DNA of 64,000 nt from Escherichia coli (GTDB taxonomy: Bacteria > Pseudomonadota > Gammaproteobacteria > Enterobacterales > Enterobacteriaceae): NCBI RefSeq assembly GCF_044324785.1, contig NZ_CP172127.1; one strand, written 5' to 3'. The translations under genes were made by a program, and so were the position numbers. Below the pieces are notes generated by a model. The model did no database searches and had not been told where the DNA came from. It saw only the letters and a list, made by a program, of their open reading frames with translations. Shown piece by piece: positions 1-15,408 of the stretch (within the stretch, counting starts at the first letter, position 1; the number at the start of each line of letters is the position of its first letter).

Positions 1-177
1 TGCCGCCCTGTATTGCAGCAGATGCTGGCAGTTTATCCGCGCCTGGAAAACTACGTCGACGAGCGAAACCATGTTGCCAAAGCATGGCTGCACTGGCTTG
101 GATTCAGGCTTGAAGAAGCCGCGCCTTATGGTGCTCTTGGTCTTAATTTCCACAGATTTCACATGGAGAGAAAATAA
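1..177 (+). CDS. 3' end of a phage virion-module gene (58 codons, truncated by the window edge)
   Basis: Frame 1 is open from the edge to TAA at 175-177. The stop overlaps the next ATG (TAATG coupling). No function can be assigned. Confidence 0.45.
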   Translation, partial: CRPVLQQMLAVYPRLENYVDERNHVAKAWLHWLGFRLEEAAPYGALGLNFHRFHMERK

Positions 178-722
178 TGTGCGATCCGGTTATTGCTGGT
201 GGCGCAATGCTCGCCATGAGTGGCATTCAGGCATACACCCAGTACCAACAGGGAAAGTATGCCTCGAAGGTTGCAGAAGCGAACGCAGATATAGCCACAG
301 CTCAGGCAAATGATGCAATAAACAGAGGTAACGCTGAAGCTGAGCAACGACGCAGAGAGACCCGACAGCGGCTTGGTACACAGGCGGCGACAATGGGGGC
401 TACCGGCGCTGATTTATCTACAGGTAACGCGCTGGATATATTTGGCGACACTGCCCAGTTTGGCGCTCTTGATTCGCTGACGACGGTGAATAACGCGCAA
501 CGCGAGGCTTACGGTTATCAGGTTCAGGCTGCCAACTATAAAGCAGAAGCCAGTTCAGCCCGTAAACAGGGGAATGTGGGAGCAGCAACAACATTGCTCA
601 CTGCGCCTCTGAAGGCATACGGTGCGTACCAGATGTTTGGTGGGACGTGGAGTCCGTTTACTCAAAGCACTCCTGCGCCAATCGGGGCAGCAGCAGGAAC
701 CAGATTACCAGGAGGATTATAA
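177..722 (+). CDS. small internal virion / ejection-associated protein (181 aa)
   Basis: Translationally coupled at both ends. Ala/Gln-rich with an N-terminal hydrophobic segment. It is the first of four co-oriented virion genes. Confidence 0.55.
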   Translation: MCDPVIAGGAMLAMSGIQAYTQYQQGKYASKVAEANADIATAQANDAINRGNAEAEQRRRETRQRLGTQAATMGATGADLSTGNALDIFGDTAQFGALDSLTTVNNAQREAYGYQVQAANYKAEASSARKQGNVGAATTLLTAPLKAYGAYQMFGGTWSPFTQSTPAPIGAAAGTRLPGGL

Positions 723-3235: not shown

Positions 3236-5034
3236 GTTACTTTGGCCTTAATCCAGTAAACCAGAATCAGCAGCTTGACGAAGCAGCATCAAATCCAGCT
3301 GGCTTTAACAGCGATGTTGGTTTTTTCGACAATGCTGTAGGAGCGGCATTGTCTGGTTTGTACTCCGGGCTGGTGGCAAAGCCAGATCAGTTGCTATGGG
3401 CAGGGATGGATAAAATCGTATCCCCGATTGCTCAGTTTATTAACGAAAACACCTCGCTCAATGATACTTCAGTTTCATACATTGCCGAGCAGAGAAAACT
3501 AGCAGAGCAGCAGGTTAAGCGGCTGACGCCTGATGCCGCGACAACCGGAACCGCCGGGCAGGTTCTTTATGGGTTGTTCGATATGGGCGGGCAGGCTGTT
3601 GTCGGTACAACGCTCGGTGGTCCTGTCGGAGGTGCAGCGGCGGTAACTTCGCTACAGGGTTTTTCTGAGTTTGAACGGCTGACAGCACAGGGTGTTGATT
3701 TCAGGACGGCGCAGGAAGCGGGATTAGTGCAGGGCATTACTGCTGGTGCCGGAACACTGATCCCTATGAGCCTCGGGTTACGTGCTGGTGGTGCGCTGGC
3801 GGAAGGTGTGGCGGCTCAGCTTGCGCGGGCGGGTGAGAGTTCAGTGCGACGCGCCGCAGCAACAGCAGTACGTGCAACGCCAGATATTGCCTATGCCGCA
3901 GGTACAAATATTGCGTTCGGTATGGCACAGCGTGGGCTTACTGCAAAAACACTTCGTGATGGTGGCTATAGCGAAATGGCTAACCAGTATGATGTGTTGG
4001 ATCGACAGGCAATTGCTATTGATGCTGTTCTTGGGGTGGCGTTTGGTGGTGTCGGCAGATTTATTAACTCTCGCGGCGAGTCTACAAGCGCACCAAATTT
4101 TTCACCAGTTGATGTTGATGCTGCACTGGCGGCGAATGCCGCTCATCATGCTGAAATTGATATTGCGCCCGGCGTGCCGATCAACGTGCTTTCGCGCAAT
4201 TCTCACATTCAGGCTCTGCGAAAAGCTATGTCTGATGTTAGCCAGGGGAGACCTGTAGACGTTGCCAGCATTGTTGAGTCTGCATCTTTCAGTGAAATTC
4301 CTGGGCGCAAGAGTCTGCTGTCTCAGGCAGTTAATGAGGCTCTGTCATCTGTAGATGATGGAGTAACGGCGCGCGCTATAGAAAATCGGTTGCTTGAAGA
4401 ACAGGCCGCGCAGCTTTTGCCGCGTGGCGATAGACAGGTTTACCAGTCTGAAATAGCTAATAGCCAACGAATTATTGAAAATCTCACTGAACAGCGCGCA
4501 CAAATTCTTGCAGAAGAGCCAACCGGTAGCGGTAAATCTTTGTCTCGTGCTCGATCAGATAAACAGGTCAGACTTCGCGATATTGACCAACGAATCCGGC
4601 AGGCACAAGAACGCCTGGAATTTTCCCGTAACGCGTTGGCACCGCATGAGCCTGGCGGTCAGTTTTTTGAAGCTCGAGCAGAACTGGCACGGAGACAGCA
4701 GGCTGAAAGTGAACTTAATGCTCAGGCTGTTTCATTCTATAAAACAGCAGAGGTCAGGACGCCAGACGAAGTAGCTCCTTTTGAGCCTGATAAAATATTG
4801 CAACAGGCAGAACAAAAAATGATGGCGGATCAGGCAGGAGATATTGATCTGCGCATAGCTGAAGACTCGCTGCTTGAATCACCTGACATGATAATCACCG
4901 TGCTGGATGATGATGGTAATCCACAATCGCGCAGCGCGCGTGAAGTACTGGATGAAGCGAACAGGGAAAGTGAGCAGGCAATACAGGATTCCAGCCTGTT
5001 TGATGTCGCTGTGGCGTGTTTCTTGAGAGGTTAA
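3232..5034 (+). CDS. ejection/internal virion protein (600 aa)
   Basis: ATGA overlap with the upstream gene. Gly/Ala-rich hydrophobic N-terminal half and a charged coiled-coil-like C-terminal half, as in podovirus ejection proteins. Confidence 0.6.
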   Translation: MSYFGLNPVNQNQQLDEAASNPAGFNSDVGFFDNAVGAALSGLYSGLVAKPDQLLWAGMDKIVSPIAQFINENTSLNDTSVSYIAEQRKLAEQQVKRLTPDAATTGTAGQVLYGLFDMGGQAVVGTTLGGPVGGAAAVTSLQGFSEFERLTAQGVDFRTAQEAGLVQGITAGAGTLIPMSLGLRAGGALAEGVAAQLARAGESSVRRAAATAVRATPDIAYAAGTNIAFGMAQRGLTAKTLRDGGYSEMANQYDVLDRQAIAIDAVLGVAFGGVGRFINSRGESTSAPNFSPVDVDAALAANAAHHAEIDIAPGVPINVLSRNSHIQALRKAMSDVSQGRPVDVASIVESASFSEIPGRKSLLSQAVNEALSSVDDGVTARAIENRLLEEQAAQLLPRGDRQVYQSEIANSQRIIENLTEQRAQILAEEPTGSGKSLSRARSDKQVRLRDIDQRIRQAQERLEFSRNALAPHEPGGQFFEARAELARRQQAESELNAQAVSFYKTAEVRTPDEVAPFEPDKILQQAEQKMMADQAGDIDLRIAEDSLLESPDMIITVLDDDGNPQSRSAREVLDEANRESEQAIQDSSLFDVAVACFLRG

Positions 5035-5039
5035 ATTAA

Positions 5040-7514
5040 ATGAGACAGGAATGTATACAAGCGGTCCAGCAGGCGGCGCAGCGCACGTTAACGGCGCGAG
5101 AAATACAGAACATTGAAGACCGCATTTATCGAAATATGCGCTCCATTGCTCGTGATGACCCGATGTCGTGGAGACAACTTTCCGAATCAGAGCGGCTATA
5201 TCGTGCAGCACAATTGGCATCTGAAGAATTACAGCGAGAAGCGGCATTAAAGAAACGTCGTGTGGCCCTCACTATAGCCGCACGTCAGAGATTGGATAAA
5301 TTTATCAATAGCTATCAAGGGGCTGATGGGAAACTTGGCGCTCTTAACCGTACTATTGCTTTTAATGCAGACGGTAAATCGAATTTCCTCTCTGTTGAAT
5401 CCAGAACAAAAGCCACTCGTGATTATGCATTGAGTCAATTGCAGGAGGCATTTGAAGCAGTTGATCCTCGCTTTTTTGGCCTGTTTGAAGATGAAGCTGG
5501 CGTGCGTGACCTGGTATATGAAATGCGAGGGCAAAATACTGGCAATGCTAAAGCAAGAAAAGGTGCTAAGGCGTGGAGAGAAGTGACAGAGCTACTGCGC
5601 CGCCGGTTTAATGATGCTGGTGGGGACATTGGCTATCTCGAAAACTGGGGGCTCCCTCAACATCATTCTATGGAAAAGGTTGGGGCGGTATCAAAGGATA
5701 AGTGGGTTAGCGATGTTATAGGTAAGCTGGATCGCAAATATTATACCCGAGTCGATGGACAACTGATGAACGATGCCGAGTTGTCTGCATTTCTTGGAGA
5801 GGCTTATAACACGATCGCTACTGGTGGGCTGAATAAGCTTACTGATACCGGAATGCGAATTTCCGGCGCACGTGCTAACCGGGGTAATGCATCACGACAG
5901 ATACATTTCAAAGATGCAGATTCCTATCTGCAATATCAGCAACTTTATGGCGATCGCTCTCTATGGGAAATCATGGTCGGTCACCTGGAAGGTATCAGTA
6001 AAGATATTGCACTGGTGGAAACATATGGCCCAAACCCCGATCATGTTTTCCGCTCTCTTCTTGATCAGGTGAAGGCAGAAACGGCAACAGCTAACCCGAG
6101 TAAAACCGGTAAAGTCGAGCGGCTGGCGAACAACACAGAGAATCTGTACAACTTTATTTCCGGAAAGACACAGCCTGTAGCGAATCCGCACATCGCGCGA
6201 TGGTCTGACAATATCCGCAACTGGCTGGTTGCCAGCAGACTCGGATCCGCGTTGCTGTCATCGTTCTCTGATCTTGGAACCATGTATCTGTCTGCGAAGG
6301 TTACCAACCTTCCAATGAACCAGTTATTCCGCAACCAGCTTGAAGCTATGGACCCAACGAACCGTACAGAACTTGCGCGGGCGCGCCGCGCTGGTCTGGC
6401 GATGGAATCTCTACTTGGCAGCGTTAACCGCTGGGCGATGGATAATATGGGGCCGTCTGTGTCTCGTTGGGCTGCAACGGCGGTAATGCGTGCCAGTGGG
6501 CTTACAGCATGGTCAGATGCGCACAAGCGCGCCTATGGCGTAACCATGATGGGAAGCCTGGGAGAAGTAGTGTCACGGACACCAGACCTTCGTAGCCTCG
6601 ATGATTCTGATTTTCGTATCCTGAAAAGCAAAGGGATTACTGACACAGACTGGAGCGTATGGAAGCTGGCGCAACAGGAGGACTGGGGGAACGGTAATAA
6701 TACGATGCTGACACCGGAAAGCATTATGCGTATCCCTGATTCAGCAGTTAAACATCTTGGTGAGCCTGAACGCGTGAAATTTGAGGCAATGCGTAAACTG
6801 CTCGGTGCCGTAACTGAAGAAGTTGATATGGCTGTTATTACACCGGGTGCACGTGAGCAACTGATAACCGGTTCTGGTATTCAGCGTGGAACATGGAAAG
6901 GTGAATTAACGAGAAGTGTTTTCCTGTTTAAATCGTTCCCTATCTCGGTGGTTATGCGTCACTGGTCACGCGCTATGGGTATGCCGTCGGCTGGTGGGCG
7001 TGCGGCATATATTGCGACGTTTATTGCCAGTACGACCATTCTTGGCGCTTTGTCGCAGCAACTTAACGACCTTGCGTCTGGTCGTAATCCTCGCGAGATG
7101 ACAGGAGAAGATGCTGCTAAATTTTGGCTTGGTGCTCTACTGAAAGGTGGTGGTCTTGGCCTTTACGGTGACTTTTTATTGTCAGATCACACTAGGTACG
7201 GAAGCGGCGCGCTGGCGTCGATGCTTGGCCCGGTAGCTGGTCTGGTTGATGACGTAGTGAAGATTGCTCAGGGCATACCGTTAAATGCTGTGGAAGGGAA
7301 GAATGAGCAGACTGGTGGTGATCTGGTTAAGCTGGGGAAAGGTCTGATGCCAGGTGCGAATCTCTGGTACTTAAAGGCGGCTCTCGATCACATGATCTTT
7401 AACCAGATGCAGGAGTATTTTTCACCAGGTTATTTGCGTAAAATGGAGCAACGTTCGAAGAAAGAGTTTAACCAGACATACTGGTGGCGACCACAGGATG
7501 TCACTCCGCAATAA
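5040..7514 (+). CDS. ejection/internal virion protein (824 aa)
   Basis: Starts 5 nt after the upstream stop. Hydrophobic glycine-rich C-terminal segments (FWLGALLKGGGLGLYGDFLL). Last gene of the plus-strand virion operon. Confidence 0.6.
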   Translation: MRQECIQAVQQAAQRTLTAREIQNIEDRIYRNMRSIARDDPMSWRQLSESERLYRAAQLASEELQREAALKKRRVALTIAARQRLDKFINSYQGADGKLGALNRTIAFNADGKSNFLSVESRTKATRDYALSQLQEAFEAVDPRFFGLFEDEAGVRDLVYEMRGQNTGNAKARKGAKAWREVTELLRRRFNDAGGDIGYLENWGLPQHHSMEKVGAVSKDKWVSDVIGKLDRKYYTRVDGQLMNDAELSAFLGEAYNTIATGGLNKLTDTGMRISGARANRGNASRQIHFKDADSYLQYQQLYGDRSLWEIMVGHLEGISKDIALVETYGPNPDHVFRSLLDQVKAETATANPSKTGKVERLANNTENLYNFISGKTQPVANPHIARWSDNIRNWLVASRLGSALLSSFSDLGTMYLSAKVTNLPMNQLFRNQLEAMDPTNRTELARARRAGLAMESLLGSVNRWAMDNMGPSVSRWAATAVMRASGLTAWSDAHKRAYGVTMMGSLGEVVSRTPDLRSLDDSDFRILKSKGITDTDWSVWKLAQQEDWGNGNNTMLTPESIMRIPDSAVKHLGEPERVKFEAMRKLLGAVTEEVDMAVITPGAREQLITGSGIQRGTWKGELTRSVFLFKSFPISVVMRHWSRAMGMPSAGGRAAYIATFIASTTILGALSQQLNDLASGRNPREMTGEDAAKFWLGALLKGGGLGLYGDFLLSDHTRYGSGALASMLGPVAGLVDDVVKIAQGIPLNAVEGKNEQTGGDLVKLGKGLMPGANLWYLKAALDHMIFNQMQEYFSPGYLRKMEQRSKKEFNQTYWWRPQDVTPQ

Positions 7515-7523
7515 GGAAGTGTT

Positions 7524-7697
7524 GTGTTTTTAATTATTTTGAGTGTGATAATTTCTGGTGGATTGTTATTTATTGACCGCTACAAATATTTTCTTAACCC
7601 TCAGACTCAAGCTATTTGCTGGTTCATCTTTGTTGTGCAGGGAGTAGTTCTTGTTGCAAGCCTTATTGAGGGGAGGCCTCTTATTTTTACTGGGTAA
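7524..7697 (+). CDS. candidate small membrane protein (57 aa, GTG start)
   Basis: AAGGAAG at 7513-7519, GTG at 7524. Two hydrophobic helices (FLIILSVIISGGLLF; ICWFIFVVQGVVLVASLI). Not in the ORF track. Confidence 0.3.
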   Translation: MFLIILSVIISGGLLFIDRYKYFLNPQTQAICWFIFVVQGVVLVASLIEGRPLIFTG

Positions 7698-7710
7698 ATT
7701 AGGTGACTAC

Positions 7711-8007
7711 ATGCAAGCTATAGGATTCATTGTTTATATCGTCGTTGGTCTTTTTCAGTTGGCAGCAATTATGGCTGGGCTTGAATCATGGTGGGGATTG
7801 CACTGGATAATTGCAGCCCCCATTGCTTTCATCGTGAGCTATATTCCATTTGTTGGAGCGATTGTTGGTATGGTTGGCGCTGTGGATGTATGGCGGTGGG
7901 AGTGGTGGCAGGCTGGCCTTCTCTTCTTTGGTGGGATCATCTTTGCTATTGTCTGCGGTGGAATGTCATCATTTTTCGAATGGCTATCATTCAGAAAAGG
8001 GACGTGA
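7711..8007 (+). CDS. small integral membrane protein (98 aa, about 3 TM)
   Basis: AGGTGA lies 4 nt upstream of ATG 7711 (track start 7651 is TTG). Trp-rich hydrophobic sequence. Followed by a terminator. Confidence 0.55.
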   Translation: MQAIGFIVYIVVGLFQLAAIMAGLESWWGLHWIIAAPIAFIVSYIPFVGAIVGMVGAVDVWRWEWWQAGLLFFGGIIFAIVCGGMSSFFEWLSFRKGT

Positions 8008-8015
8008 CATGTCAC

Positions 8016-8040
8016 AGGCCGCTTTCGCGGCCTTGTTTTT
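8016..8040 (+). terminator. rho-independent terminator after the small membrane-protein genes
   Basis: AGGCCGC-TTTC-GCGGCCT hairpin followed by TGTTTTT. Confidence 0.65.
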
Positions 8041-8200
8041 AACGAATGCCACCGCCGCCTGGGCGGGAATCCGCAGAACGCCCACCGCAGCGTGAGCCGT
8101 CAGCAGCAGTGTCGCTGTCGTGCTGACAACGACCGGCAAAGGCCTGAGTTGAAGCTACCAGAGACAACAAAACGAACAGTGCAGCAAATGCTTTTTTCAT
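8039..8200 (-). CDS. candidate secreted mini-protein (53 aa precursor, about 31 aa mature, 2 Cys)
   Basis: Internal ATG at 8200 gives MKKAFAALFVLLSLVASTQAFA, a textbook Sec signal with an AFA cleavage site. TTGACG-16-TATAGA lies upstream at about 8210-8240. The gene sits after the terminator at 8273-8293. Confidence 0.4.
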   Translation of the reverse strand: MKKAFAALFVLLSLVASTQAFAGRCQHDSDTAADGSRCGGRSADSRPGGGGIR

Positions 8201-8272
8201 TGTGACATTTCCATCTATAAGCCACCTCAATGTGGCGTCAATGAGTGTAGCACTGACTTTTGTTTCGTCCAC

Positions 8273-8293
8273 AAAAAAGCCCGCAGCGCGGGC
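8273..8293 (-). terminator. rho-independent terminator of the 8921-8293 cassette
   Basis: Minus strand reads GCCCGC-GCT-GCGGGC followed by TTTTTT. Confidence 0.75.
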
Positions 8294-8733
8294 TATTCTT
8301 CTTCATCATTAAAAAGCGGATTGTTGTTTCCATCTGATGAAAGGAAAGGTATGTGTTCTCTTGAAAATCCAACAATGACAATTTCATTATCATTTTTTGC
8401 ATAATGAATGCATTCATTAGAATGCCTTCCGCCAGGGTTGAAATTTAAGTTAATGGTATAATTCTTAAATGTGTTTGGATACCATGTTGGCCCACAATGA
8501 TAATGCCAATAATTCTCTTGCTCATAATTGTCTGAGCCGGGAATTTTATCATGGTTATCATCAACCCACGAGGGCTTGTTTTTTCCAACAAGCGCCCTTC
8601 CATTGGCAACATCCTCTAAAAAACTTTGTATGATTTTTATTTCATCATCAGTAAGGAAAGGTCCGTCTACAGCGAAAGGGGTGTTGCTTTCCCCATGTAG
8701 AAAACTATTAGATATTCTAATGTTAAACTTCAA
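8293..8733 (-). CDS. hypothetical cytoplasmic protein, 146 aa, AT-rich; possibly YafO-like toxin fold (weak)
   Basis: No in-frame ATG is available downstream of the track start, which overlaps the 8754-8921 gene in another frame. TTG at 8733 is preceded by AGGAG with a 6 nt spacer. Motifs YWHYHCGP and SNECIHY..IVIVGFSREH resemble the HxHL and SDxxLVY...aH layout I recall for YafO. Acidic tail NDEEE. Confidence 0.5.
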   Translation of the reverse strand: MKFNIRISNSFLHGESNTPFAVDGPFLTDDEIKIIQSFLEDVANGRALVGKNKPSWVDDNHDKIPGSDNYEQENYWHYHCGPTWYPNTFKNYTINLNFNPGGRHSNECIHYAKNDNEIVIVGFSREHIPFLSSDGNNNPLFNDEEE

Positions 8734-8753
8734 GGAAAACTCCTGATGTGCTT

Positions 8754-8921
8754 CTATTTGGAGCGAAATGCCGCCTTGAAGTCGCTGAAAGATGTTCCTG
8801 TCTGGTAAACCATATCCTTGTCGCGCTCTTTGCTTGCGCGGCCAAGCATAACTTTTCCAATGACATCCCAGCATTGCTTGGCTTGTTCATTGTGCTGAGT
8901 ACGATTTTTCAACGCTGTCAT
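8754..8921 (-). CDS. small basic protein, 55 aa, first gene of the cassette (candidate regulator or antitoxin)
   Basis: Perfect SD AAGGAGG lies 6 nt upstream of ATG 8921. TAG stop lies 20 nt before the downstream TTG start. Missed by the ORF track (under 60 aa). Confidence 0.5.
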   Translation of the reverse strand: MTALKNRTQHNEQAKQCWDVIGKVMLGRASKERDKDMVYQTGTSFSDFKAAFRSK

Positions 8922-8933
8922 ATCGCGCCTCCT

Positions 8934-8948
8934 TTACCTTTAAGGTAA
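8934..8948 (-). promoter_or_regulatory. inverted repeat O1 (TTACC-TTTAA-GGTAA) abutting a -10-like hexamer
   Basis: Minus strand reads TTGCAG-17nt-TACTAT, then TACTATTACCTTAAAGGTAA, followed directly by the SD of the 55-aa gene. Confidence 0.4.
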
Positions 8949-8996
8949 TAGTACGCTATTCACCCACAGTCTGCAATCTGTACAGAATTATTTAAA

Positions 8997-9012
8997 GGCA
9001 CATCCCTGTGCC
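8997..9012 (-). terminator. hairpin downstream of the antirepressor gene
   Basis: Minus strand reads GGCACA-GGGA-TGTGCC followed by TTTAAATAATT (weak U tract). Confidence 0.4.
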
Positions 9013-9020
9013 ACCGCCCG

Positions 9021-9713
9021 TCAGAAGAACCCTGCTTTGTCGTTGATGTACTCCGCGTGCGTCTGGATATCACGCAGGCATTTGCTCACACCGACGATGT
9101 AGCAGAACATGGTGGTCAGCTCCGCCGCCGCGCCCGATACGTCGTGCCCGTCTTCCTGTAACTGGTTCAGCAGATTCATCAGCAGTGAGTTCTCCGTCAG
9201 GCCGAGAACACCAGACGGCGAATGAATCAGGCTGCGGTAGCCGGGCTTCAGCGGGGCGCTGTAGGTTTTGTTCTCTATCTTCATCGCCTGCATTACTGCT
9301 GACGCCGTGGCGTTGGCTACCTGGTCGGCAACCATCTTTATGCGTTCTTCCTGCGGGAGCGAGTTTTTAATGTAACTTCCGGTGCGACGGATCTGAGGAA
9401 GAACCTCACCTGTAACCCATTCAAGAAATCTGAATGCTCTCGTTCCCTCTGTCATTGCCTCTTTGCAACGCAGAATAAGGATGTAGAGACCTGATTCTGA
9501 AACGATGGATAGTTCTTGTATTCCACCAGGGGTCTGTATTGAATACAGCCCCTTTTTGTTCCAGCCTTTTTTATCAAGTTTTCTCGCTTGTGTAACATCA
9601 ATATTCAAAGCATTGCACACATCTTTGGTGACAAACCAAGGTTCTCCGTCAATCATGAACATACGGATCTGGCAGGATGACTCAAAGGAAAAGATGGAAG
9701 GTTTGGTATTCAT
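9021..9713 (-). CDS. Bro-N domain antirepressor (Ant-like), 230 aa
   Basis: ATG at 9713 has AGGTGA upstream. The N-terminus FSFESSCQIRMFMIDGEPWFVTKDVCNALNI is the classic Bro-N signature. The C-terminal ~65 aa are paralogous to the product of 10024-10281. Confidence 0.8.
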   Translation of the reverse strand: MNTKPSIFSFESSCQIRMFMIDGEPWFVTKDVCNALNIDVTQARKLDKKGWNKKGLYSIQTPGGIQELSIVSESGLYILILRCKEAMTEGTRAFRFLEWVTGEVLPQIRRTGSYIKNSLPQEERIKMVADQVANATASAVMQAMKIENKTYSAPLKPGYRSLIHSPSGVLGLTENSLLMNLLNQLQEDGHDVSGAAAELTTMFCYIVGVSKCLRDIQTHAEYINDKAGFF

Positions 9714-9739
9714 GGCGATCACCTTTGTAGTTAGGTTAA

Positions 9740-9790
9740 TCACCACCGCTGAGACCAATCAGATGGTGGTGAACTGTGCAGAGTTGGTCT
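9740..9790 (-). promoter_or_regulatory. ant leader hairpin (hexaloop GACCAA/UUGGUC) plus adjacent complementary box; potential pseudoknot
   Basis: 8 bp stem 9740-9747/9765-9772 and 4 bp stem 9749-9752/9759-9762 close a hexaloop at 9753-9758. TTGGTCT at 9784-9790 is complementary to the loop plus one closing nucleotide. Confidence 0.4.
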
Positions 9791-9861
9791 TACCGGCTAC
9801 AAAGGAACCCGGCGCACCTTTCGGTGCCCCCACACAGCCCACCATAGAATAGGTGCGCTTT

Positions 9862-9893
9862 ACACATAAAAAAACCGCTTATGCGGCATATGT
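9862..9893 (-). terminator. terminator-like element inside the spacer
   Basis: Minus strand reads CACATATGCCGCATAAGCGGTTTTTTTATGTG. A short GCCGC/GCGGT stem with a U7 run is flanked by CACATA/TATGTG. Confidence 0.35.
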
Positions 9894-9900
9894 GCCTCTG

Positions 9901-9954
9901 TAGTAATCCGGGAGACCAATCCCGGCACTGGATTTTGCCAGTGCCTGATTACTA
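9901..9954 (-). ncRNA. candidate structured RNA: 54 nt three-way junction
   Basis: Closing stem TAGTAATC/GATTACTA (8 bp). Arm 1: 5 bp CGGGA/TCCCG with hexaloop GACCAA. Arm 2: 8 bp GGCACTGG/CCAGTGCC. All pairs are Watson-Crick. Strand assigned from context only. Confidence 0.35.
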
Positions 9955-9964
9955 TGGCACAAGA

Positions 9965-10005
9965 GGAGTGCTTATATTTACCGCAAAGGTAAATATAAGC
10001 ACTCC
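9965..10005. repeat. perfect 18 bp inverted repeat (5 nt spacer) whose centre is O3 (TTACC-GCAAA-GGTAA)
   Basis: GGAGTGCTTATATTTACC-GCAAA-GGTAAATATAAGCACTCC, lying 19 nt downstream of the stop of the 85-aa gene. Confidence 0.8.
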
Positions 10006-10020
10006 AGTTGGTAATTACAA
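9992..10020 (-). promoter_or_regulatory. candidate sigma70 promoter reading into the structured spacer and ant
   Basis: Minus strand reads TTGTAA-17nt-TATATT, with the -10 directly abutting O3 (TATATTTACCTTTGCGGTAA). Confidence 0.35.
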
Positions 10021-10023
10021 ACC

Positions 10024-10281
10024 TTATCTGGTTTGTTTTCGTAATTGTTCGGCACAATAGTCTAGATGTGTTTGCAGATCCTGCATAGACATCTGTGAGC
10101 TGGTGACGTAGTTAATCAGTGCAGTCAGTTCGGCAAGTGGGCCATCGACATTAAATCCATCCTTATCGAGATCCCGGAGTAATTTCATCAAGTGCGATCC
10201 CTCCACCAGTGACCTGACGCCTCCCGGCGTGTGAATCCTTTCGGTAAATCCGTCTTCCAGTGGATAGTGATACTGCTGCAT
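10024..10281 (-). CDS. small protein (85 aa) paralogous to the Ant C-terminal domain; candidate SOS-induced antirepressor
   Basis: ATG at 10281 has GGAG upstream (the track start at 10299 is TTG). About 45 percent identity by eye over about 62 aa with the Ant C-terminus (IHxPxGV..L.E.S.LM.LL..L..DG..V.G..AELT...Y......D.QTH..Y). Confidence 0.65.
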   Translation of the reverse strand: MQQYHYPLEDGFTERIHTPGGVRSLVEGSHLMKLLRDLDKDGFNVDGPLAELTALINYVTSSQMSMQDLQTHLDYCAEQLRKQTR

Positions 10282-10300
10282 CTTATCTTCTCCATGCAAT

Positions 10301-10320
10301 AACTGTATAAATATACAGTA
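10301..10320. promoter_or_regulatory. LexA (SOS) box
   Basis: AACTGTATAAATATACAGTA against consensus TACTGTATATATATACAGTA (18/20, CTG-N10-CAG intact). It lies 20 nt upstream of ATG 10281 and falls in the spacer of TTGATA-17-TATTGC on the minus strand. Confidence 0.8.
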
Positions 10321-10357
10321 TCAAATAATTTGTTTGCTATCCAGCACGTTTTGCAAA

Positions 10358-10372
10358 TCACCTGAAAGGTAA
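10358..10372 (-). promoter_or_regulatory. inverted repeat O2 (minus strand TTACC-TTTCA-GGTGA) abutting a -10-like hexamer
   Basis: Minus strand reads TAGATA-17nt-GATATT, with GATATTACCTTTCAGGTGA. On the plus strand the same site lies in the spacer of TTGCAA-16-TATCTT, which faces the tailspike gene. Confidence 0.35.
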
Positions 10373-10476
10373 TATCTTTTCGTATTTATGGATTATCTAT
10401 CCATATGTGGTTTTTCAGGTAATAGAATAACCAGATATGCGGCGCAACGGGTGCTGCGACTATCTGGAGATTTAAC

Positions 10477-13233
10477 ATGACGGTCTCAACCGAAGTTGAC
10501 CACAACGAATACACCGGTAACGGCGCTACGACATCATTTCCGTATACCTTCCGTATTTTCAAAAAATCCGACCTGGTTGTTCAGGTGTCTGACCTGAACG
10601 GGAACGTAACAGAATTGGTTCTGGATACCGGTTATACGGTAACTGGGGCGGGCACTTATAGTGGCGGTTCTGTTGTTCTTCCGTCGCCGCTTGCTGCTGG
10701 ATGGCGAATTACGATAGATCGTGTGCTTGATGTAGTGCAGGAGACAGACCTTCGCAATCAGGGAAAATTTTTCCCCGAAGTGCATGAAGATGCTTTTGAC
10801 TACCTGACGATGCTGATCCAGCAATGTTTTGGGTGGTTCAGACGTGCATTGATGAAACCATCTTTGCTTGCAAAATATTACGATGCAAAGCAAAACAGAA
10901 TTTCTAACCTTGCAGATCCATCACTTGAGCAGGATGCTGTAAATAATCGCTCAATGCGTAATTATGTTGATGCTGCAATCGCCGGAGTTGTTGGTGGTTT
11001 TGGTTGGTTTATTCAGTATGGTTCTGGAGCAGTATACCGAACGTTCCAGGATAAGATGCGGGATAACGTTAACGCTCTTGATTTTGTTCCGTTTGAGCAA
11101 AGATATGCTGCATTAAATTTTGAAGTTGATGCGTCTGAATGGTTAATTAATGCGATAAATTCTGGTGCAAGTGTCGTTAGAATACCTGCAGGTAAATGGA
11201 TGATTTCTAAGAACATAGATGTGCCTCCTGGAGTGTCATTAATTGGTGATGGCATTGATTATTGGGATACATATAGACCAGCGCCTGAAAGATTATTAAA
11301 AAGTTGGAGTAAAGGAACCCATCTTGTATTTACTGGTGATGGAGAAAAAAACAAATATTTTTTTAACATCTCTAATGAAAGACCAGTTAAAATTGTTGAA
11401 GGGATATCTTGTAAGTTCACTGAGTTTACAAATGAAGATTCTGTAGGTGTTACTCCTGCTACACCAAAAGCCATGAGCGTAGCTGTTAGTATCAACAGGG
11501 CATCACAGTTACGCAACCTGAGAATAATGGTAAGTAAAAATGGTATTGAAGGATACAATAACCCTGATTCTTATTCATTGGGTGATGACTGGGATATAGG
11601 GTTGCATGTATACGATAGCTGTGATTCAGTTATTGATAACGTACAGATTGTCGGCTATTGGAGGGTAAAAGGACTACTACTGACAGAAAATGACGGGAGC
11701 CTTTCAATGAAGGGAAATCCTGAAAAAACGCACTTTAATAACGTTTATGTCCAGTCAGGGATCGCGATAAGGAATAGCCCTCAGATTGATCTTGTAAGTA
11801 ATACTGAAAGCTCAGTGACATTTAAACATAAAAAGTCGATGAGAATAACTTCAGTTAAACAGTTTAAAATTGCTGGCAGTGAATTAGTATATACGTATTC
11901 AGATGCATCATTTGATGGAACTAACATCACACTATCTGGTATTTCTCCTGAAATACAAGGTACAATAAGTGTAATCAGGTTTCCGTCAATTGGTAATAAT
12001 TTTAGCGGGACTGTTTTTGAGAATACAGTAGCCACTACTCTTGATCATACATCAGGTAAGCCATCAGAATACTTTGGCCTTCCTGCATCCTTTGCATTAG
12101 AGGTTGATGGTTTCCCTGTTCGTAATTTAAGGTTTGATAAATTCAAAGCTCAAACAACATTTGATAAAGGAAATTGCATTTTTGGTGATTGCCGTGATGT
12201 TAAAATAACATCATCTGAGTTTGAAAATGGAATTATGATTGCGTATAACCTGACCGAGACTCAGGGTTATACAGGAAATCTTAGATTTTTTGCTTCTGAT
12301 CTTCAGAGCAGCGTTAACACAAGTGAGTTTAAACCAAGAGACGCATTTGTAGACAATAGACAAATAAAAACGGAGTTTACTGATGGTTCGTTCATTATAA
12401 AGAACTGGAGGCCTACAGATACAAAAATACAATGGTCGTCTGGAGCAGATGCTATTGTTCTTAGAGAGTCACCTGACGAACAATCAAACGGAAATATTTA
12501 CGGGCATCACATTGATGGTAAAAGATGGATTAATGTTAGTGGATATAACAAAGATATAAATATTTCATCAAGAAACTTAAGCGTAAAAAACCATGGTGAT
12601 GACTCTGCAGTTATTAATATATTCGGCGACTCTGGAAATATTGCCATTAAAGGTAATTTTTCACCAATTATTGATAACAGCAAATCTCTTGGTGCACCAT
12701 CATTTAGATGGGCACAGGTTTATTCTGCGAACGGTTCGATAAACACATCAGATGGTAGAGAAAAAAGTGAACCGATTAGTACAAGTGAGCTCAGCTTGTA
12801 TATGTCTCGTGGTTATGAAGGTGATGCAATTCTGGATGCATGGGGAGATATCAGGATTGTAGCTTTTCGCTGGCTTGATGCCGTCAGGGAAAAGGGAGAT
12901 GGTGCCCGCTGGCATTTTGGTGTTATAGCACAACAAGTGAGAGACGCTTTCCTCGCGCATGGGATTGATGGAACCAGATTTGGCCTTCTCTGTTACGATG
13001 AATGGGATGATAAATACGCGCCAGTGATGGCGGTAAGGATGATCACTAAAGTTGTGGATGGCGTCGAAATTGAGATGGAAGAAGAATACGAAACAGAAGA
13101 GCGAACTCTGGTTTGCAAGGCTGGAAATAGGTGGGGTATCCGTACTGACCAGTGTTTATGGCTTGAGTCAGCTTATTTGCGTAGAAGAATCGAAAAAATA
13201 GAATCACGTCTTGCAATGCTTGAAAGTAGCTAA
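10477..13233 (+). CDS. tailspike (918 aa): conserved N-terminal adaptor, AT-rich beta-helix-like receptor-binding core, C-terminal S74 intramolecular chaperone
   Basis: GGAG lies 8 nt upstream. N-terminus as in epsilon15-type tailspikes (recollection). Repetitive N/G/S/V-rich core. The C-terminus has the SDGREK cleavage-type motif and a WHFGVIAQQV...FGLLCYDEWD block typical of peptidase S74 chaperone domains. Confidence 0.85.
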   Translation: MTVSTEVDHNEYTGNGATTSFPYTFRIFKKSDLVVQVSDLNGNVTELVLDTGYTVTGAGTYSGGSVVLPSPLAAGWRITIDRVLDVVQETDLRNQGKFFPEVHEDAFDYLTMLIQQCFGWFRRALMKPSLLAKYYDAKQNRISNLADPSLEQDAVNNRSMRNYVDAAIAGVVGGFGWFIQYGSGAVYRTFQDKMRDNVNALDFVPFEQRYAALNFEVDASEWLINAINSGASVVRIPAGKWMISKNIDVPPGVSLIGDGIDYWDTYRPAPERLLKSWSKGTHLVFTGDGEKNKYFFNISNERPVKIVEGISCKFTEFTNEDSVGVTPATPKAMSVAVSINRASQLRNLRIMVSKNGIEGYNNPDSYSLGDDWDIGLHVYDSCDSVIDNVQIVGYWRVKGLLLTENDGSLSMKGNPEKTHFNNVYVQSGIAIRNSPQIDLVSNTESSVTFKHKKSMRITSVKQFKIAGSELVYTYSDASFDGTNITLSGISPEIQGTISVIRFPSIGNNFSGTVFENTVATTLDHTSGKPSEYFGLPASFALEVDGFPVRNLRFDKFKAQTTFDKGNCIFGDCRDVKITSSEFENGIMIAYNLTETQGYTGNLRFFASDLQSSVNTSEFKPRDAFVDNRQIKTEFTDGSFIIKNWRPTDTKIQWSSGADAIVLRESPDEQSNGNIYGHHIDGKRWINVSGYNKDINISSRNLSVKNHGDDSAVINIFGDSGNIAIKGNFSPIIDNSKSLGAPSFRWAQVYSANGSINTSDGREKSEPISTSELSLYMSRGYEGDAILDAWGDIRIVAFRWLDAVREKGDGARWHFGVIAQQVRDAFLAHGIDGTRFGLLCYDEWDDKYAPVMAVRMITKVVDGVEIEMEEEYETEERTLVCKAGNRWGIRTDQCLWLESAYLRRRIEKIESRLAMLESS

Positions 13234-13254
13234 ATATTGAGGATTAATCTTAGT

Positions 13255-13299
13255 AGCCGACTTGCTTATTACGAAGTAAGTTCGGCTTCTTTCTTCTTT
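13255..13299 (+). terminator. rho-independent terminator after the tailspike
   Basis: AGCCGACTTGCTT...AAGTAAGTTCGGCT stem (one bulge, one GU pair) followed by TCTTTCTTCTTT. Confidence 0.7.
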
Positions 13300-13462
13300 A
13301 ATTGTGACTGAGAGGTACACTAGACCATTTTCTGAACGAAATTTTCATTGCCGTAGAAGGTAGAAATACAGCGTTTTGAGGTAACTATTATCCTTAAATG
13401 GTTTATTATGTGTGAATCTTCAATAGTAAGGAGATTGTTATGCGTAATAAACGGTGTTCATT

Positions 13463-13867
13463 ATGTCAGCCCATCTAACTACTGATTCTTTAAATCAATG
13501 GCTTAGTGTGAGCTCTCTTGCTGCAGTTATCGTAGGCGTTCCGCCAGAGGTGGCGCTCGGTGCTCTTGCTGGTGCGGTAATTTTTGTTACCTCTGCGGTA
13601 GAGTACCCAATTCATCGTCGCGTACTCTTATCGATGCTTAGCTTTCTCTGTGGACTTCTTTTCTACAAACCAGCAGCATCAATTCTTATCGGCATAGCCA
13701 GCCTGATCCCTACCATCACGCAGGACTCTTTTGAAAAAGGGATTGTTTTCTCTGCTGGCGCATTCGTGTCAGCAATTGTCGCTGTGCGTATTGGTATATG
13801 GCTCTACCACCGTTCAGACAATCCACGCGATTTAATTCCGGGGAGAAAAGACGATGGTAACGCATGA
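13463..13867 (+). CDS. holin-like membrane protein (134 aa, about 4 TM)
   Basis: First gene of the lysis cassette and strongly hydrophobic. The start is uncertain (GTG 13454 or ATG 13463; neither has a good SD). Confidence 0.5.
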   Translation: MSAHLTTDSLNQWLSVSSLAAVIVGVPPEVALGALAGAVIFVTSAVEYPIHRRVLLSMLSFLCGLLFYKPAASILIGIASLIPTITQDSFEKGIVFSAGAFVSAIVAVRIGIWLYHRSDNPRDLIPGRKDDGNA

Positions 13868-14162
13868 GTTTTTTTTGCTTATCACCAATGCAGTTATTTG
13901 TACTGGCATAGCAATTCGCGTTGTCACATTCCGGCGTAACGGCTCTCAACATCGAAGATGGGGAGGGTGGCTTGCTTATTTCCTTATTGTTGCTGCGGCC
14001 AGTATTCCTGTTCGTGTCGTCTATGCAATCTGGTTACGCACGCCAATGGCTGTGGATTTATCTGAGGTCATTATCAACGCTGTCATGCTTGCCGCGGTTA
14101 TTAAAACACGCGGTAACGTTGTTCAGATTTTCAAAATATCGAGGTCTAAACATGGAGATTAA
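13854..14162 (+). CDS. holin (102 aa, 3 TM, basic C-terminus)
   Basis: Overlaps the upstream gene end and the endolysin start. Three TM helices and a charged tail (KISRSKHGD). Confidence 0.6.
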
Positions 14163-14781
14163 ACAATTCCAGCGAGCTGCTGGTATTAGCGAGGCGCTGG
14201 CCGCACGCTGGTTCTCGCATATAACTTCTGCGATGAAAGAGTTTGGTATCAGCAAAGCAGAAGATCAGGCAATGTTTATTGCTCAAGTCGGGCATGAGTC
14301 TGGGGGCTTCACCAGGTTGCAGGAGAATTTCAACTACAGTGTCAGCGGACTGGCTAACTTCGTTCGGGCTGGGCGTCTCACTCAGGGGCAGGCTAATGCA
14401 CTGGGTCGCCATGCTGGTGAACCACCATTGCCACTCGAGCGCCAGCGAGCGATTGCCAATCTGGTGTACAGCAAACGCATGGGGAACAATGCCCCCGGCG
14501 ATGGCTGGAATTACCGTGGCCGCGGACTTATCCAGATTACCGGTTTGAATAACTATCGTGATTGCGGAAACGGCCTGAAAGTGGACCTGCTGGAGAATCC
14601 TGAACTGTTGGCGCAGGACGAATACGCGGCTCGTAGCGCGGCGTGGTTCTTCTCCAGCAAAGGTTGCATGAAGTATACCGGCGATATTGCACGTGTAACT
14701 CTGATTATCAATGGTGGCAGGAATGGCATCGACGACCGGCGCGCGCGGTACGTCACTGCCAGTAAGGTGCTGGCGGTATGA
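14152..14781 (+). CDS. endolysin, glycoside hydrolase family 19 (chitinase-like), 209 aa
   Basis: Start at ATG 14152 ([11 protein letters not shown]), not the track start at 13921. Has the [12 protein letters not shown] catalytic-region motif and [12 protein letters not shown], both typical of GH19 phage lysins. Confidence 0.85.
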
Positions 14782-15260
14782 TCTGGGCATTCGTAAAAGC
14801 ATACTGGAAACAGTTGATTATCGTGGCAGTGCTTGCTGTTCTGGTCATATCAGGAGTTGTTGCCTGGAATGTACACGGTATCCGTCAGTACGACGCCGGG
14901 TATGCGCAGGCGAAAGAAGACTGCAAAGCCGAAGAAGAAAAAGTTCGTCAGTACTACGAACAGGAGAAAGTGACCAATGAACGTGAAGCTCAGCAGAGGA
15001 TCGACCAGGCGCGCAATGATGCTCTTGATGCTGCCGCTAGCGCTGGCCGGTTGCAGCAACAACTCTTTGCCATCCGTGAGCAGCTCAGGCAGTATAACGC
15101 CATTGTCGGCGCTGGGTCGTCAGCCGCAGACACCGGAGTTTTGCTTGCCGACGTGCTCAGCAAATCTCTCGAGAGAAACAGACAACTGGCAGAGTATGCT
15201 GACCGGGCAGCCGAAGCCGGAAGAGTCTGCGAAAAACAGTACGACACTTTGACCAGATAG
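14778..15260 (+). CDS. i-spanin (Rz-like), 160 aa
   Basis: ATGA overlap with the endolysin. N-terminal TM helix followed by a charged coiled-coil periplasmic domain. Confidence 0.8.
14977..15252 (+). CDS. o-spanin (Rz1-like) lipoprotein, fully embedded in the +1 frame of Rz
   Basis: Signal peptide with the lipobox LALAGC. Pro/Ser-rich mature part. Lies entirely inside 14778-15260. Confidence 0.75.
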   Translation: MNVKLSRGSTRRAMMLLMLPLALAGCSNNSLPSVSSSGSITPLSALGRQPQTPEFCLPTCSANLSRETDNWQSMLTGQPKPEESAKNSTTL

Positions 15261-15370
15261 CATGGCATTTTTCATGGTACTGATTTCCGGTGACGGTATA
15301 TAAAACGGTACGGGAAAAATTGAGATTTGGAAAAATGTTATCACTCAATTGGTTATGGTTATCGTAAATA

Positions 15371-15385
15371 ATTGAGTGGGAATGA
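15371..15385 (+). other. guaA: native guaA 3' end (IEWE-stop) retained at the prophage right junction (attR core region)
   Basis: ATT GAG TGG GAA TGA matches my recollection of the GuaA C-terminus ...ATIEWE. An in-frame TAA lies immediately upstream, so homology starts here. Confidence 0.55.
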
Positions 15386-15408
15386 TTTGACCCTGCACTA
15401 TGAATGAA

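Follow-up and report, generated by a model that had tools for sequence, protein, structure and literature searches.

A LexA-boxed antirepressor gene and a Bro-N gene behind an IsrK-C4 RNA cassette share an SPC32H-type Ant-like domain in an epsilon15-type prophage of Escherichia coli

We analysed a stretch of 64,000 nucleotides (nt) from an Escherichia coli genome (RefSeq assembly GCF_044324785.1, contig NZ_CP172127.1), hereafter called the window, whose first 15 kb (window 1-15387) form the late half of an epsilon15-type (Uetakevirus) podovirus prophage. In this prophage a LexA (SOS) box precedes ant, a gene for a protein of 85 amino acids (aa), and a longer gene downstream encodes a relative of that protein fused to a Bro-N domain. 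We propose, with a probability of roughly 0.7, that the locus combines two antirepressors: ant, an SOS trigger of the type known from Salmonella phage SPC32H, and Bro-N::Ant-C, an RNA-gated antirepressor resembling the immI module of phage P1. The two would share a repressor-binding domain and respond to different signals. All components belong to known families; their tandem arrangement is common and new only to a slight degree.

The 85-aa gene is itself not new: its sequence identifies it as an orthologue of the characterised Ant of SPC32H. It occupies positions 10024-10281 on the minus strand, with its ATG at 10281, its stop codon at 10024-10026 and a GGAG Shine-Dalgarno sequence ahead of it. 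Residues 2-84 of the product match residues 3-85 of chain E in PDB entry 5D50, "Anti-repressor protein" (phmmer, E = 4.1e-47), and the protein also matches PHROG 450; no Pfam family scores above threshold for it. Identity is about 88% to the annotated SPC32H ant over its full length (tblastn) and 100% to phage ZX5. PHROG 450 is labelled 'unknown function' though it contains the experimentally characterised SPC32H Ant, and ant is called a 'hypothetical protein' in RefSeq and in most phage records, including that of ZX5.

What is known of SPC32H-type prophages gives this identification its meaning. Their repressor is not cleaved; LexA self-cleavage instead leads to an antirepressor that inactivates the repressor by protein-protein contact, as outlined in PMC7380047, which cites Kim & Ryu 2013 for a LexA-controlled Ant that inactivates the non-cleavable Rep. 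One Ant tetramer binds two Rep dimers, according to the account in PMC9638917. Across the phage collection that we searched, Ant occurs in 35 records and a homologue of SPC32H Rep in 36, and the two record sets are essentially identical. Phages ZX5, phiv142-3 and TL-2011b each encode an Ant 98-100% identical to that of the window, and each also encodes a Rep homologue. Rep differs more: the proteins of the E. coli phages are only 42% identical to SPC32H Rep, with the identity distributed evenly along their length.

The gene slot is shared as well. SPC32H ant, like the gene in the window, has large injection/tail genes on one side and the tailspike gene on the other, and its transcription runs away from the tailspike. 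A location in the late region, which the original prediction had remarked on, is therefore the rule for this phage group. SPC32H differs from the window in what follows, because it is without the isrK-C4 cassette and the Bro-N::Ant-C gene downstream, and its ant ends directly at a terminator.

The LexA box lies at 10301-10320 on the minus strand. It reads AACTGTATAAATATACAGTA on the plus strand and TACTGTATATTTATACAGTT on the coding minus strand, with two mismatches to the consensus TACTGTATATATATACAGTA, so the predicted score of 18/20 and the position upstream of the gene both hold. Its end is 19 nt from the ant ATG, one less than first given. Within the 64 kb the box is unique at up to three mismatches, and 100 shuffles produced no such site; the looser pattern CTGT-N8-ACAG was observed three times against 0.67 expected. 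We aligned 150 nt around the box from 11 loci in at least six genera, comprising E. coli alleles, SPC32H, phiV10, ZX5, two Citrobacter loci, Pseudocitrobacter, Scandinavium and Candidatus (Ca.) Erwinia dacicola. The box stands at the same offset in all 11, including SPC32H, with its CTGT and ACAG arms invariant and its AT-rich centre variable. Judged by its sequence and conservation, it is a real, conserved LexA-type site ahead of the small antirepressor gene. The 2013 abstract by Kim and Ryu is said to report that a point mutation in the homologous SPC32H box makes Ant constitutive.

Conservation also points to a promoter for ant. A TG-n-TACTGT element, an GTGCTGGATAG block and the Shine-Dalgarno sequence are invariant across the same 11 loci. 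The TACTGT is made of the first six nt of the LexA box and, with the TG-n at 10323-10321, is a candidate extended -10 element on the minus strand. Within the GTGCTGGATAG block, TGGATA at 10338-10343 (minus strand) is a candidate -35. The LexA box would thus overlap the predicted ant promoter.

By homology, this first tier of control is close to established. LexA bound to its box would keep ant off, and DNA damage would remove LexA and allow Ant to be made. The Ant tetramer would then bind two Rep dimers and break up the DNA-bound Rep tetramer, inducing the prophage as in SPC32H. We assign the role of SOS trigger to ant here because of the 88% identity, the conserved box and the strict co-occurrence with Rep.

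A comparison with Tum of phage 186 and the Gifsy antirepressors had been drawn at the outset. We rejected homology to Tum: the single-pair BLASTP comparison with 186 Tum gave an E-value of 0.061 and hhalign a probability of 0.07%. The systems of 186 Tum and of Gifsy GfoA/GfhA are alike in design, each inactivating a non-cleavable repressor with a small protein made from a LexA-box promoter. With no detectable sequence relationship to Tum by either method, the resemblance is one of analogy, not of family membership.

The second gene, at 9021-9713 on the minus strand, encodes the 230-aa Bro-N::Ant-C antirepressor, recognised by its Pfam, 5D50 and PHROG 450 matches. Its Bro-N domain (PF02498), already named in the original prediction, spans residues 16-106 (nt 9396-9668) at 51.4 bits against a cut-off of 25.6; a Pfam match to P22_AR_N is sub-threshold (17.7 bits against 30.7). 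The Ant-like domain spans residues 149-225 (nt 9039-9269), with E-values of 9.1e-14 against 5D50_E and 3e-37 against PHROG 450. Aligned directly, the 85-aa protein and residues 149-222 of the Bro-N protein share 31 of 74 positions (42%) without a gap (E = 6e-16). The homology seen by eye is therefore sound, and its extent of about 45% over about 62 aa is revised to these values. Between 21 and 23 positions are invariant between the free and the fused Ant-like domains.

The Ant-like domain occurs both alone and as a module. A profile of the domain run against 1.84 billion representative proteins found 61 relatives, mostly stand-alone proteins of about 85-95 aa. Ten longer matches were scanned with Pfam, and eight carry a Bro-N, AntA, Phage_pRha or ORF6N N-domain; the other two gave no match. 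A word-indexed protein search with the small Ant had returned close stand-alone homologues only, and the fused forms surfaced in the exhaustive profile search. Relatives of full length (227-236 aa) occur widely across Enterobacteriaceae. Among E. coli alleles of this same locus, two Bro-N variants, AntA and ORF6N all precede an identical stretch of 85 C-terminal residues, and isrK and C4 are kept throughout. An identical C-domain behind swapped N-domains marks the Ant-like domain as the constant, selected part and the N-domain as exchangeable.

A functional result comes from ZX5. The C-terminal 91 aa of the window protein are 100% identical to those of ZX5 open reading frame (ORF) 4, whose overexpression reduced the lysogen count from 10^9 to 10^6 and cut repressor mRNA by 75% (PMC9782041). 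The ZX5 orthologue of the Bro-N gene thus appears to behave as an antirepressor on overexpression. The ZX5 paper has no mention of LexA, SPC32H or C4 (PMC9782041).

The two genes are separated by a 310-nt spacer with a folding energy of -144.7 kcal/mol (z = -9.1 relative to shuffled sequences). Two Rfam families match it at scores above their gathering thresholds, both full-length and on the minus strand. The structured leader foreseen for the Bro-N gene is thus borne out. The upstream match is an IsrK-like small RNA (sRNA) at 9868-9944 on the minus strand (RF01394, 74.7 bits against a gathering score of 50). It has two hairpins with the decoy targets b1, TTGGTCT (9919-9913), located in the loop of the second hairpin, and a1, CTACAGAGG (9903-9895). 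An intrinsic terminator follows at 9887-9874, consisting of GCCGCATAAGCGGT and a T-run. The c4-a1b1 motif (RF03163) inside IsrK is sub-threshold, at 38.4 bits against a cut-off of 46.7. On the same strand, TGcCATAGT at 9951-9959 is a candidate extended -10 for the isrK/C4/Bro-N operon, in alignment with the TATAGT/TATATT -10 elements of the APSE-7 and VT2-Sakai isrK promoters, and CTTGTGCCATAGT is invariant in nine cassettes.

The downstream match is a C4 antisense RNA at 9762-9849 on the minus strand (RF01695; score 78.6 bits, gathering score 45, all 87 model positions covered). Its elements are an a' loop, CCTTTGTAG (9805-9797), and a single-stranded b' segment, AGACCAA (9790-9784). The matching target region is the leader of the Bro-N gene at 9722-9758 (minus strand), which holds b2, TTGGTCT (9758-9752), and a2, CTACAAAGG (9730-9722). 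The a2 site is the exact complement of a' and covers the Shine-Dalgarno sequence 8 nt ahead of the Bro-N ATG. IsrK carries the same information, with a1 pairing to a' via one G-U pair and b' complementing TTGGTCT at both b1 and b2. A leader made of IsrK and C4 would place the second copy of the domain first of all under antisense-RNA control of the immI type.

Comparison of nine cassettes provides strong comparative evidence for this pairing. The set comprises the window, phiV10, ZX5, TL-2011b, the AntA and ORF6N alleles, Citrobacter werkmanii, Ca. Erwinia dacicola and Scandinavium. It contains four a' loop variants (CCTTTGTAG, CCTTTTAG, CCACTTAG and CCTACTAG) and two b' variants (AGACCAA and ACGCCAA). 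In 9/9 cassettes all corresponding target sites carry the compensating change, both in the a'/a1/a2 set and in the b'/b1/b2 set. ZX5 is of the CCTTTTAG/ACGCCAA type, against CCTTTGTAG/AGACCAA in the window. These compensated changes indicate that C4 pairs with the Bro-N gene leader and with IsrK, and that the pairing sets specificity classes.

The cassette travels widely. C4 and isrK recur in seven further loci, and the isrK-C4 cassette is found in 236 phage records of unrelated groups. The APSE-7 record annotates the order isrK, C4, antirepressor, including the a' and b' regions. Other records describe the region differently: an 'ash family protein' coding sequence of ZX5 (locus L010, 1779-1892) overlaps the C4 RNA (1821-1906) and is probably a mis-annotation of the C4 RNA gene, and the phiV10 record marks its C4 region as 'similar to hypothetical protein SF0880'.

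The closest model for an antirepressor gated in this way is immI (c4-icd-ant1/ant2) of phages P1 and P7, where C4 blocks antirepressor synthesis by pairing around the ribosome-binding site and sets the heteroimmunity between the two phages (PMC12197685). The likeness includes the C4 family itself (RF01695), its two antisense elements, targets both upstream and at the ribosome-binding site, specificity variants compensated at all sites, and an antirepressor as the regulated gene. The arrangement here differs in having no icd-like ORF. The window has no ORF in the interval from C4 to the Bro-N ATG, and the Shine-Dalgarno sequence that forms a2 belongs to the Bro-N gene itself; one allele (locus L013) has an extra 168-aa ORF between C4 and the antirepressor gene. 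It differs also in its product, which is Bro-N::Ant-C and not P1 Ant, in its podoviral epsilon15-type backbone, and in the LexA-controlled paralogue directly upstream.

A second model is the isrK-orf45(STnc1160)-anrP locus of Gifsy-1 in Salmonella (Hershko-Shalev 2016). There, anrP is translationally silent on transcripts that extend past the IsrK terminator, and short IsrK activates it in trans; AnrP induces Gifsy-1, and IsrK is needed for induction in stationary phase (PMC4825925). Both systems have an IsrK of family RF01394 with a terminator, read-through to an antirepressor-like gene, and a short RNA that shares sequences complementary to the downstream RNA. They differ in that the window has no coupling ORF of the orf45 type, while its downstream protein carries an Ant domain of the SPC32H type. 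Rep inactivation is the presumed output here, and no antQ-type antiterminator was seen in the late-region half of the prophage. Cassettes of APSE and Stx phages share the order isrK, C4 and then a Bro-N or Ant gene. They differ in their canonical -35/-10 promoters, in being without the palindrome TTACC-N5-GGTAA, and in that neither of the two loci inspected has a LexA-controlled paralogue annotated directly upstream.

That palindrome recurs at both antirepressor genes of the window. A copy with one mismatch, TCACC-N5-GGTAA, lies at 10358-10372, upstream of the predicted ant promoter in the gap that separates ant from the divergently transcribed tailspike gene; the aligned site in ZX5, SPC32H and the other loci is exact. 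Between the ant stop and the start of isrK, a perfect palindrome with 18-bp arms (9965-10005) holds the core TTACC-GCAAA-GGTAA at 9978-9992. Only this core is conserved in other genera, and outside E. coli it stands as a short palindrome of 5-7 bp. No terminator was called between the ant stop codon and isrK, and no T-tract follows the 18-bp palindrome. We rejected the idea that it is a conserved terminator, since it is short outside E. coli and without a T-tract. A third copy, TTACC-TTTAA-GGTAA at 8934-8948, lies below the Bro-N gene and upstream of a 55-aa ORF, with its ZX5 equivalent at 978-992.

The distribution of the palindrome suggests what reads it. ZX5 has 10 exact copies of TTACC-N5-GGTAA, all intergenic, against about 0.15 expected (scaled from 0.06 per 16 kb). 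Clustering around rep, they are found in the spacer between rep and cro, below rep and ahead of the replication and packaging operons; three correspond to the sites of the window. A one-mismatch copy precedes int. SPC32H has five copies around rep, two farther on and one upstream of ant. In 9/9 epsilon15-type cassettes the palindrome directly adjoins the -35 region predicted for isrK, whereas the isrK cassettes of VT2-Sakai (Stx) and APSE-7 are without it and have ordinary -35/-10 hexamers instead. The scattered copies look like a set of operators and recall the numerous C1 operators of P1, and TTACC-N5-GGTAA, present at both antirepressor promoters, is probably the Rep operator. The epsilon15 genome paper reportedly proposed this palindrome, as a 17-bp element, to be the operator of the repressor. 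In P1, C1 represses the immI operon at Op51. With palindromes at both promoters, Rep itself may also repress the isrK-C4-Bro-N cassette, as C1 does at Op51, and the candidate operator-like site at the operon promoter would be one more likeness to immI. The motif in its longer form, (A)TTACC-N5-GGTAA(T) of 15-17 bp, lies in many intergenic regions of epsilon15-type phages, including the starts of the early, replication, packaging and int units.

We infer that the Bro-N gene is silenced at the level of translation by C4 and probably also at the level of transcription by Rep. Its operon would begin with the IsrK-like sRNA and its terminator, and read-through transcripts would carry C4 and then the Bro-N gene. 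In a lysogen, a' and b' of C4 would pair with the Shine-Dalgarno region of the Bro-N gene and block its translation, and IsrK with its a1 and b1 targets would act as a decoy or an activator. Bro-N::Ant-C would appear wherever C4 is missing, does not match or is titrated. A phage entering the cell, or one of differing C4 specificity, could make the fused antirepressor transiently and inactivate Rep, an anti-immunity or heteroimmunity function. The Ant-like C-domain would be the constant, Rep-directed part, joined to an exchangeable Bro-N, AntA, ORF6N or pRha N-domain. That C4 and its targets have diversified next to an unchanging Ant-like domain speaks for such a role between phages, in superinfection or heteroimmunity as in P1/P7.

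Several observations weigh against this reading of two antirepressors for two signals. The ZX5 overexpression result supports the antirepressor role of Bro-N::Ant-C indirectly, and binding of Rep is ascribed to a fused domain with only 42% identity to Ant. The AlphaFold2 model of the Bro-N protein is mediocre (pLDDT 68), and a Foldseek search with it against PDB returned nothing at E <= 0.001, nor 5D50 itself; the N-domain gave weak matches only, to Ski/Dachshund, baculovirus Orf22-N and Mbp1-like structures. The Bro-N gene of phiV10 (p23, 194 aa; locus L002, 3571-4250) has a frameshift in its Ant-like domain, with the rest annotated as the 29-aa ORF p22, which makes the Bro-N::Ant-C gene dispensable for a viable phage. 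A consensus promoter scan called no promoter for either ant or isrK, so both promoters are placed by conservation only. Searching the 64-kb window by tblastn with the SPC32H and ZX5 repressors found no repressor homologue, because the early region lies outside the window. Finally, the palindrome's probable identity as the Rep operator rests on its distribution and on the proposal attributed to the epsilon15 genome paper.

The original prediction had envisaged a two-tier or feed-forward induction switch, and a version of it can be built from the elements described here. The SOS-induced ant transcript would carry the a1/b1 decoys and titrate C4, and Ant would derepress the isrK promoter, so that Bro-N::Ant-C is switched on. 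We consider this amplifier possible, at odds clearly below even. Equally tentative is its second part, in which Bro-N::Ant-C holds Rep off once LexA re-forms and so renders induction irreversible. The amplifier gains some support from the lack of a called terminator between the ant stop and isrK, where loci outside E. coli have just the short 5-7 bp palindrome, and from the exact copies of C4 targets in IsrK. The operator-like palindrome at the isrK -35 region, present in all nine epsilon15-type cassettes and in none of the Stx/APSE ones, fits it too, as does the precedent of Gifsy-1, in which IsrK activates the downstream antirepressor and is needed for stationary-phase induction (PMC4825925). 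It leaves unexplained, however, why at least eight compensated C4 specificity combinations accompany an identical Ant-like domain, a pattern typical of immunity between phages, and here the C4 diversification favours heteroimmunity. SPC32H, epsilon15 and about half of the E. coli loci have the small ant alone, the phiV10 Bro-N copy is frameshifted, and the window's own 18-bp hairpin after ant could stop or process the transcript. In its fullest form, the ant mRNA would end at the IsrK terminator with a C4 sponge as its 3' end, Ant would clear Rep from the operator at the isrK promoter, and Bro-N::Ant-C would then sustain Rep inactivation after LexA recovery. We are a little more doubtful still of such a single, SOS-started and self-locking circuit joining three regulators on one Rep-binding domain.

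The fused gene could also stand outside the phage's own switch. The Bro-N::Ant-C cassette would then be mobile cargo, acting on the repressors of other prophages (cross-talk of the Gifsy/Fels-2 kind) or on another target reached through its Bro-N domain, or simply decaying. We think this unlikely. The locus is a hot spot: its alleles vary in their N-domain, and some have an additional ORF, a toxin of the YafO family or an Arc and Ant module as third antirepressor unit. This variability, the spread of the isrK-C4 cassette through 236 records of unrelated phages and the frameshift in phiV10 all suit cargo. Yet in the phage collection a second Ant-like place is found only in records that encode Ant and a Rep homologue too, and the Ant-like domain is conserved while N-domains swap. 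The cassette promoter, moreover, has acquired the palindrome of the epsilon15 group, and ZX5 ORF4 lowers its own phage's lysogeny (PMC9782041). More improbable again is that the fused protein modulates Ant and not Rep, through mixed tetramers that poison Ant or tether it via Bro-N. Such mixing would draw on the tetrameric state of Ant in its complex with Rep, as given in PMC9638917, and on the 21-23 positions invariant between free and fused domains. Against it, overexpressed ZX5 ORF4 promoted the lytic outcome and did not block it (PMC9782041). We give scarcely any credence to the reading of the LexA-like palindrome as chance or non-functional sequence, given its uniqueness in the window and the shuffles and its fixed position and invariant arms in 11 loci of at least six genera.

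Among other immunity systems, the overall layout of the two-antirepressor locus also parallels immI of phage P22 (mnt-arc-ant plus sar). P22 immI lies in the late region beside the tailspike gene. In both cases an antirepressor module is gated by an antisense RNA (PMC12197685 for sar), and TL-2011b has an Arc and Ant module at this very hot spot. The differences are that sar is not C4, and that Mnt and Arc are absent from the window.

The tandem was described at first as an unusual pairing, which its frequency contradicts. Of 5426 complete E. coli genomes, 280 contain box, ant, isrK and C4 as one contiguous unit, at a coverage of at least 80%. About 261 further E. coli genomes match only part of the 607-nt query, mostly the ant half among the matches listed. 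The tandem is also present in Citrobacter, Scandinavium and Ca. Erwinia loci. In the literature that we searched, we did not find a description of two neighbouring genes sharing the SPC32H Ant domain, of the Ant domain as a module of Bro-N, AntA, ORF6N or pRha proteins, or of operator-like palindromes bracketing both genes.

These assignments do not overturn current understanding, all components being known. They would make an 85-aa 'hypothetical' gene the SOS trigger of a prophage type that about 10% of complete E. coli genomes carry. Many Bro-N, AntA, ORF6N and pRha 'antirepressors' have as their C-terminal module the domain of a structurally solved antirepressor, which gives that module a testable role. 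Were the self-locking circuit true, Rep binding would be the first concrete job for the C-terminal domain of this class. And if Rep, LexA and C4 converge on one domain, the locus would be a compact system for telling 'host damaged' from 'another phage here'.

The gene order of the prophage is collinear with phage vB_EcoP_ZX5, from structural genes through the ant region and the tailspike N-terminus to lysis genes. The prophage edge lies near 15387, where yfgI, yfgH and pdeF (named from the equivalent locus in E. coli strain EC21) follow, and the remaining 48 kb of the window are ordinary chromosome. An edge at this point fits integration at the guaA 3' end, the site reported for ZX5, phiV10 and epsilon15; PMC9782041 describes this attachment site for ZX5. 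NCBIfam has no model matching any of the five proteins of the locus.

The tailspike gene next to ant (10477-13233, plus strand) encodes 918 aa with a C-terminal endosialidase-chaperone (Peptidase_S74) domain and a weak match to an endosialidase catalytic domain. Tailspike bodies differ strongly among related loci (GH28-like, SGNH hydrolase, head-binding domain), so receptor specificity is swapped directly beside the ant module. The Bro-N gene of O157 typing phages 9 and 10 shows the same split match as that of phiV10.

Below the Bro-N gene lie two cargo ORFs on the minus strand, of 55 aa (8754-8921, PHROG 8607) and 146 aa (8293-8733, PHROG 5954), both families being of unknown function. Their membership in the switch is uncertain. 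A bidirectional terminator at 8278-8294 closes the pair, and a weak Trp-leader match at 8271-8377 is far below the Rfam threshold. In TL-2011b the same slot instead holds a small ORF and a YafO-family toxin, and it may be a slot for toxin-antitoxin-like or defence cargo. Small membrane or secreted proteins (8042-8200, minus strand; 7524-8007, plus strand) lie between the last structural gene and the cargo ORFs. In this region a 53-aa protein matches PHROG 14503, 'membrane associated protein' (moron category), and a 118-aa hydrophobic ORF matches PHROG 3075. Beyond the cargo genes, some alleles (TL-2011b, locus L014, 61-1245; locus L013, 1-465) carry a third antirepressor module, an Arc-like repressor with a P22-type Ant, so one phage can hold three differently controlled antirepressors within 5 kb.

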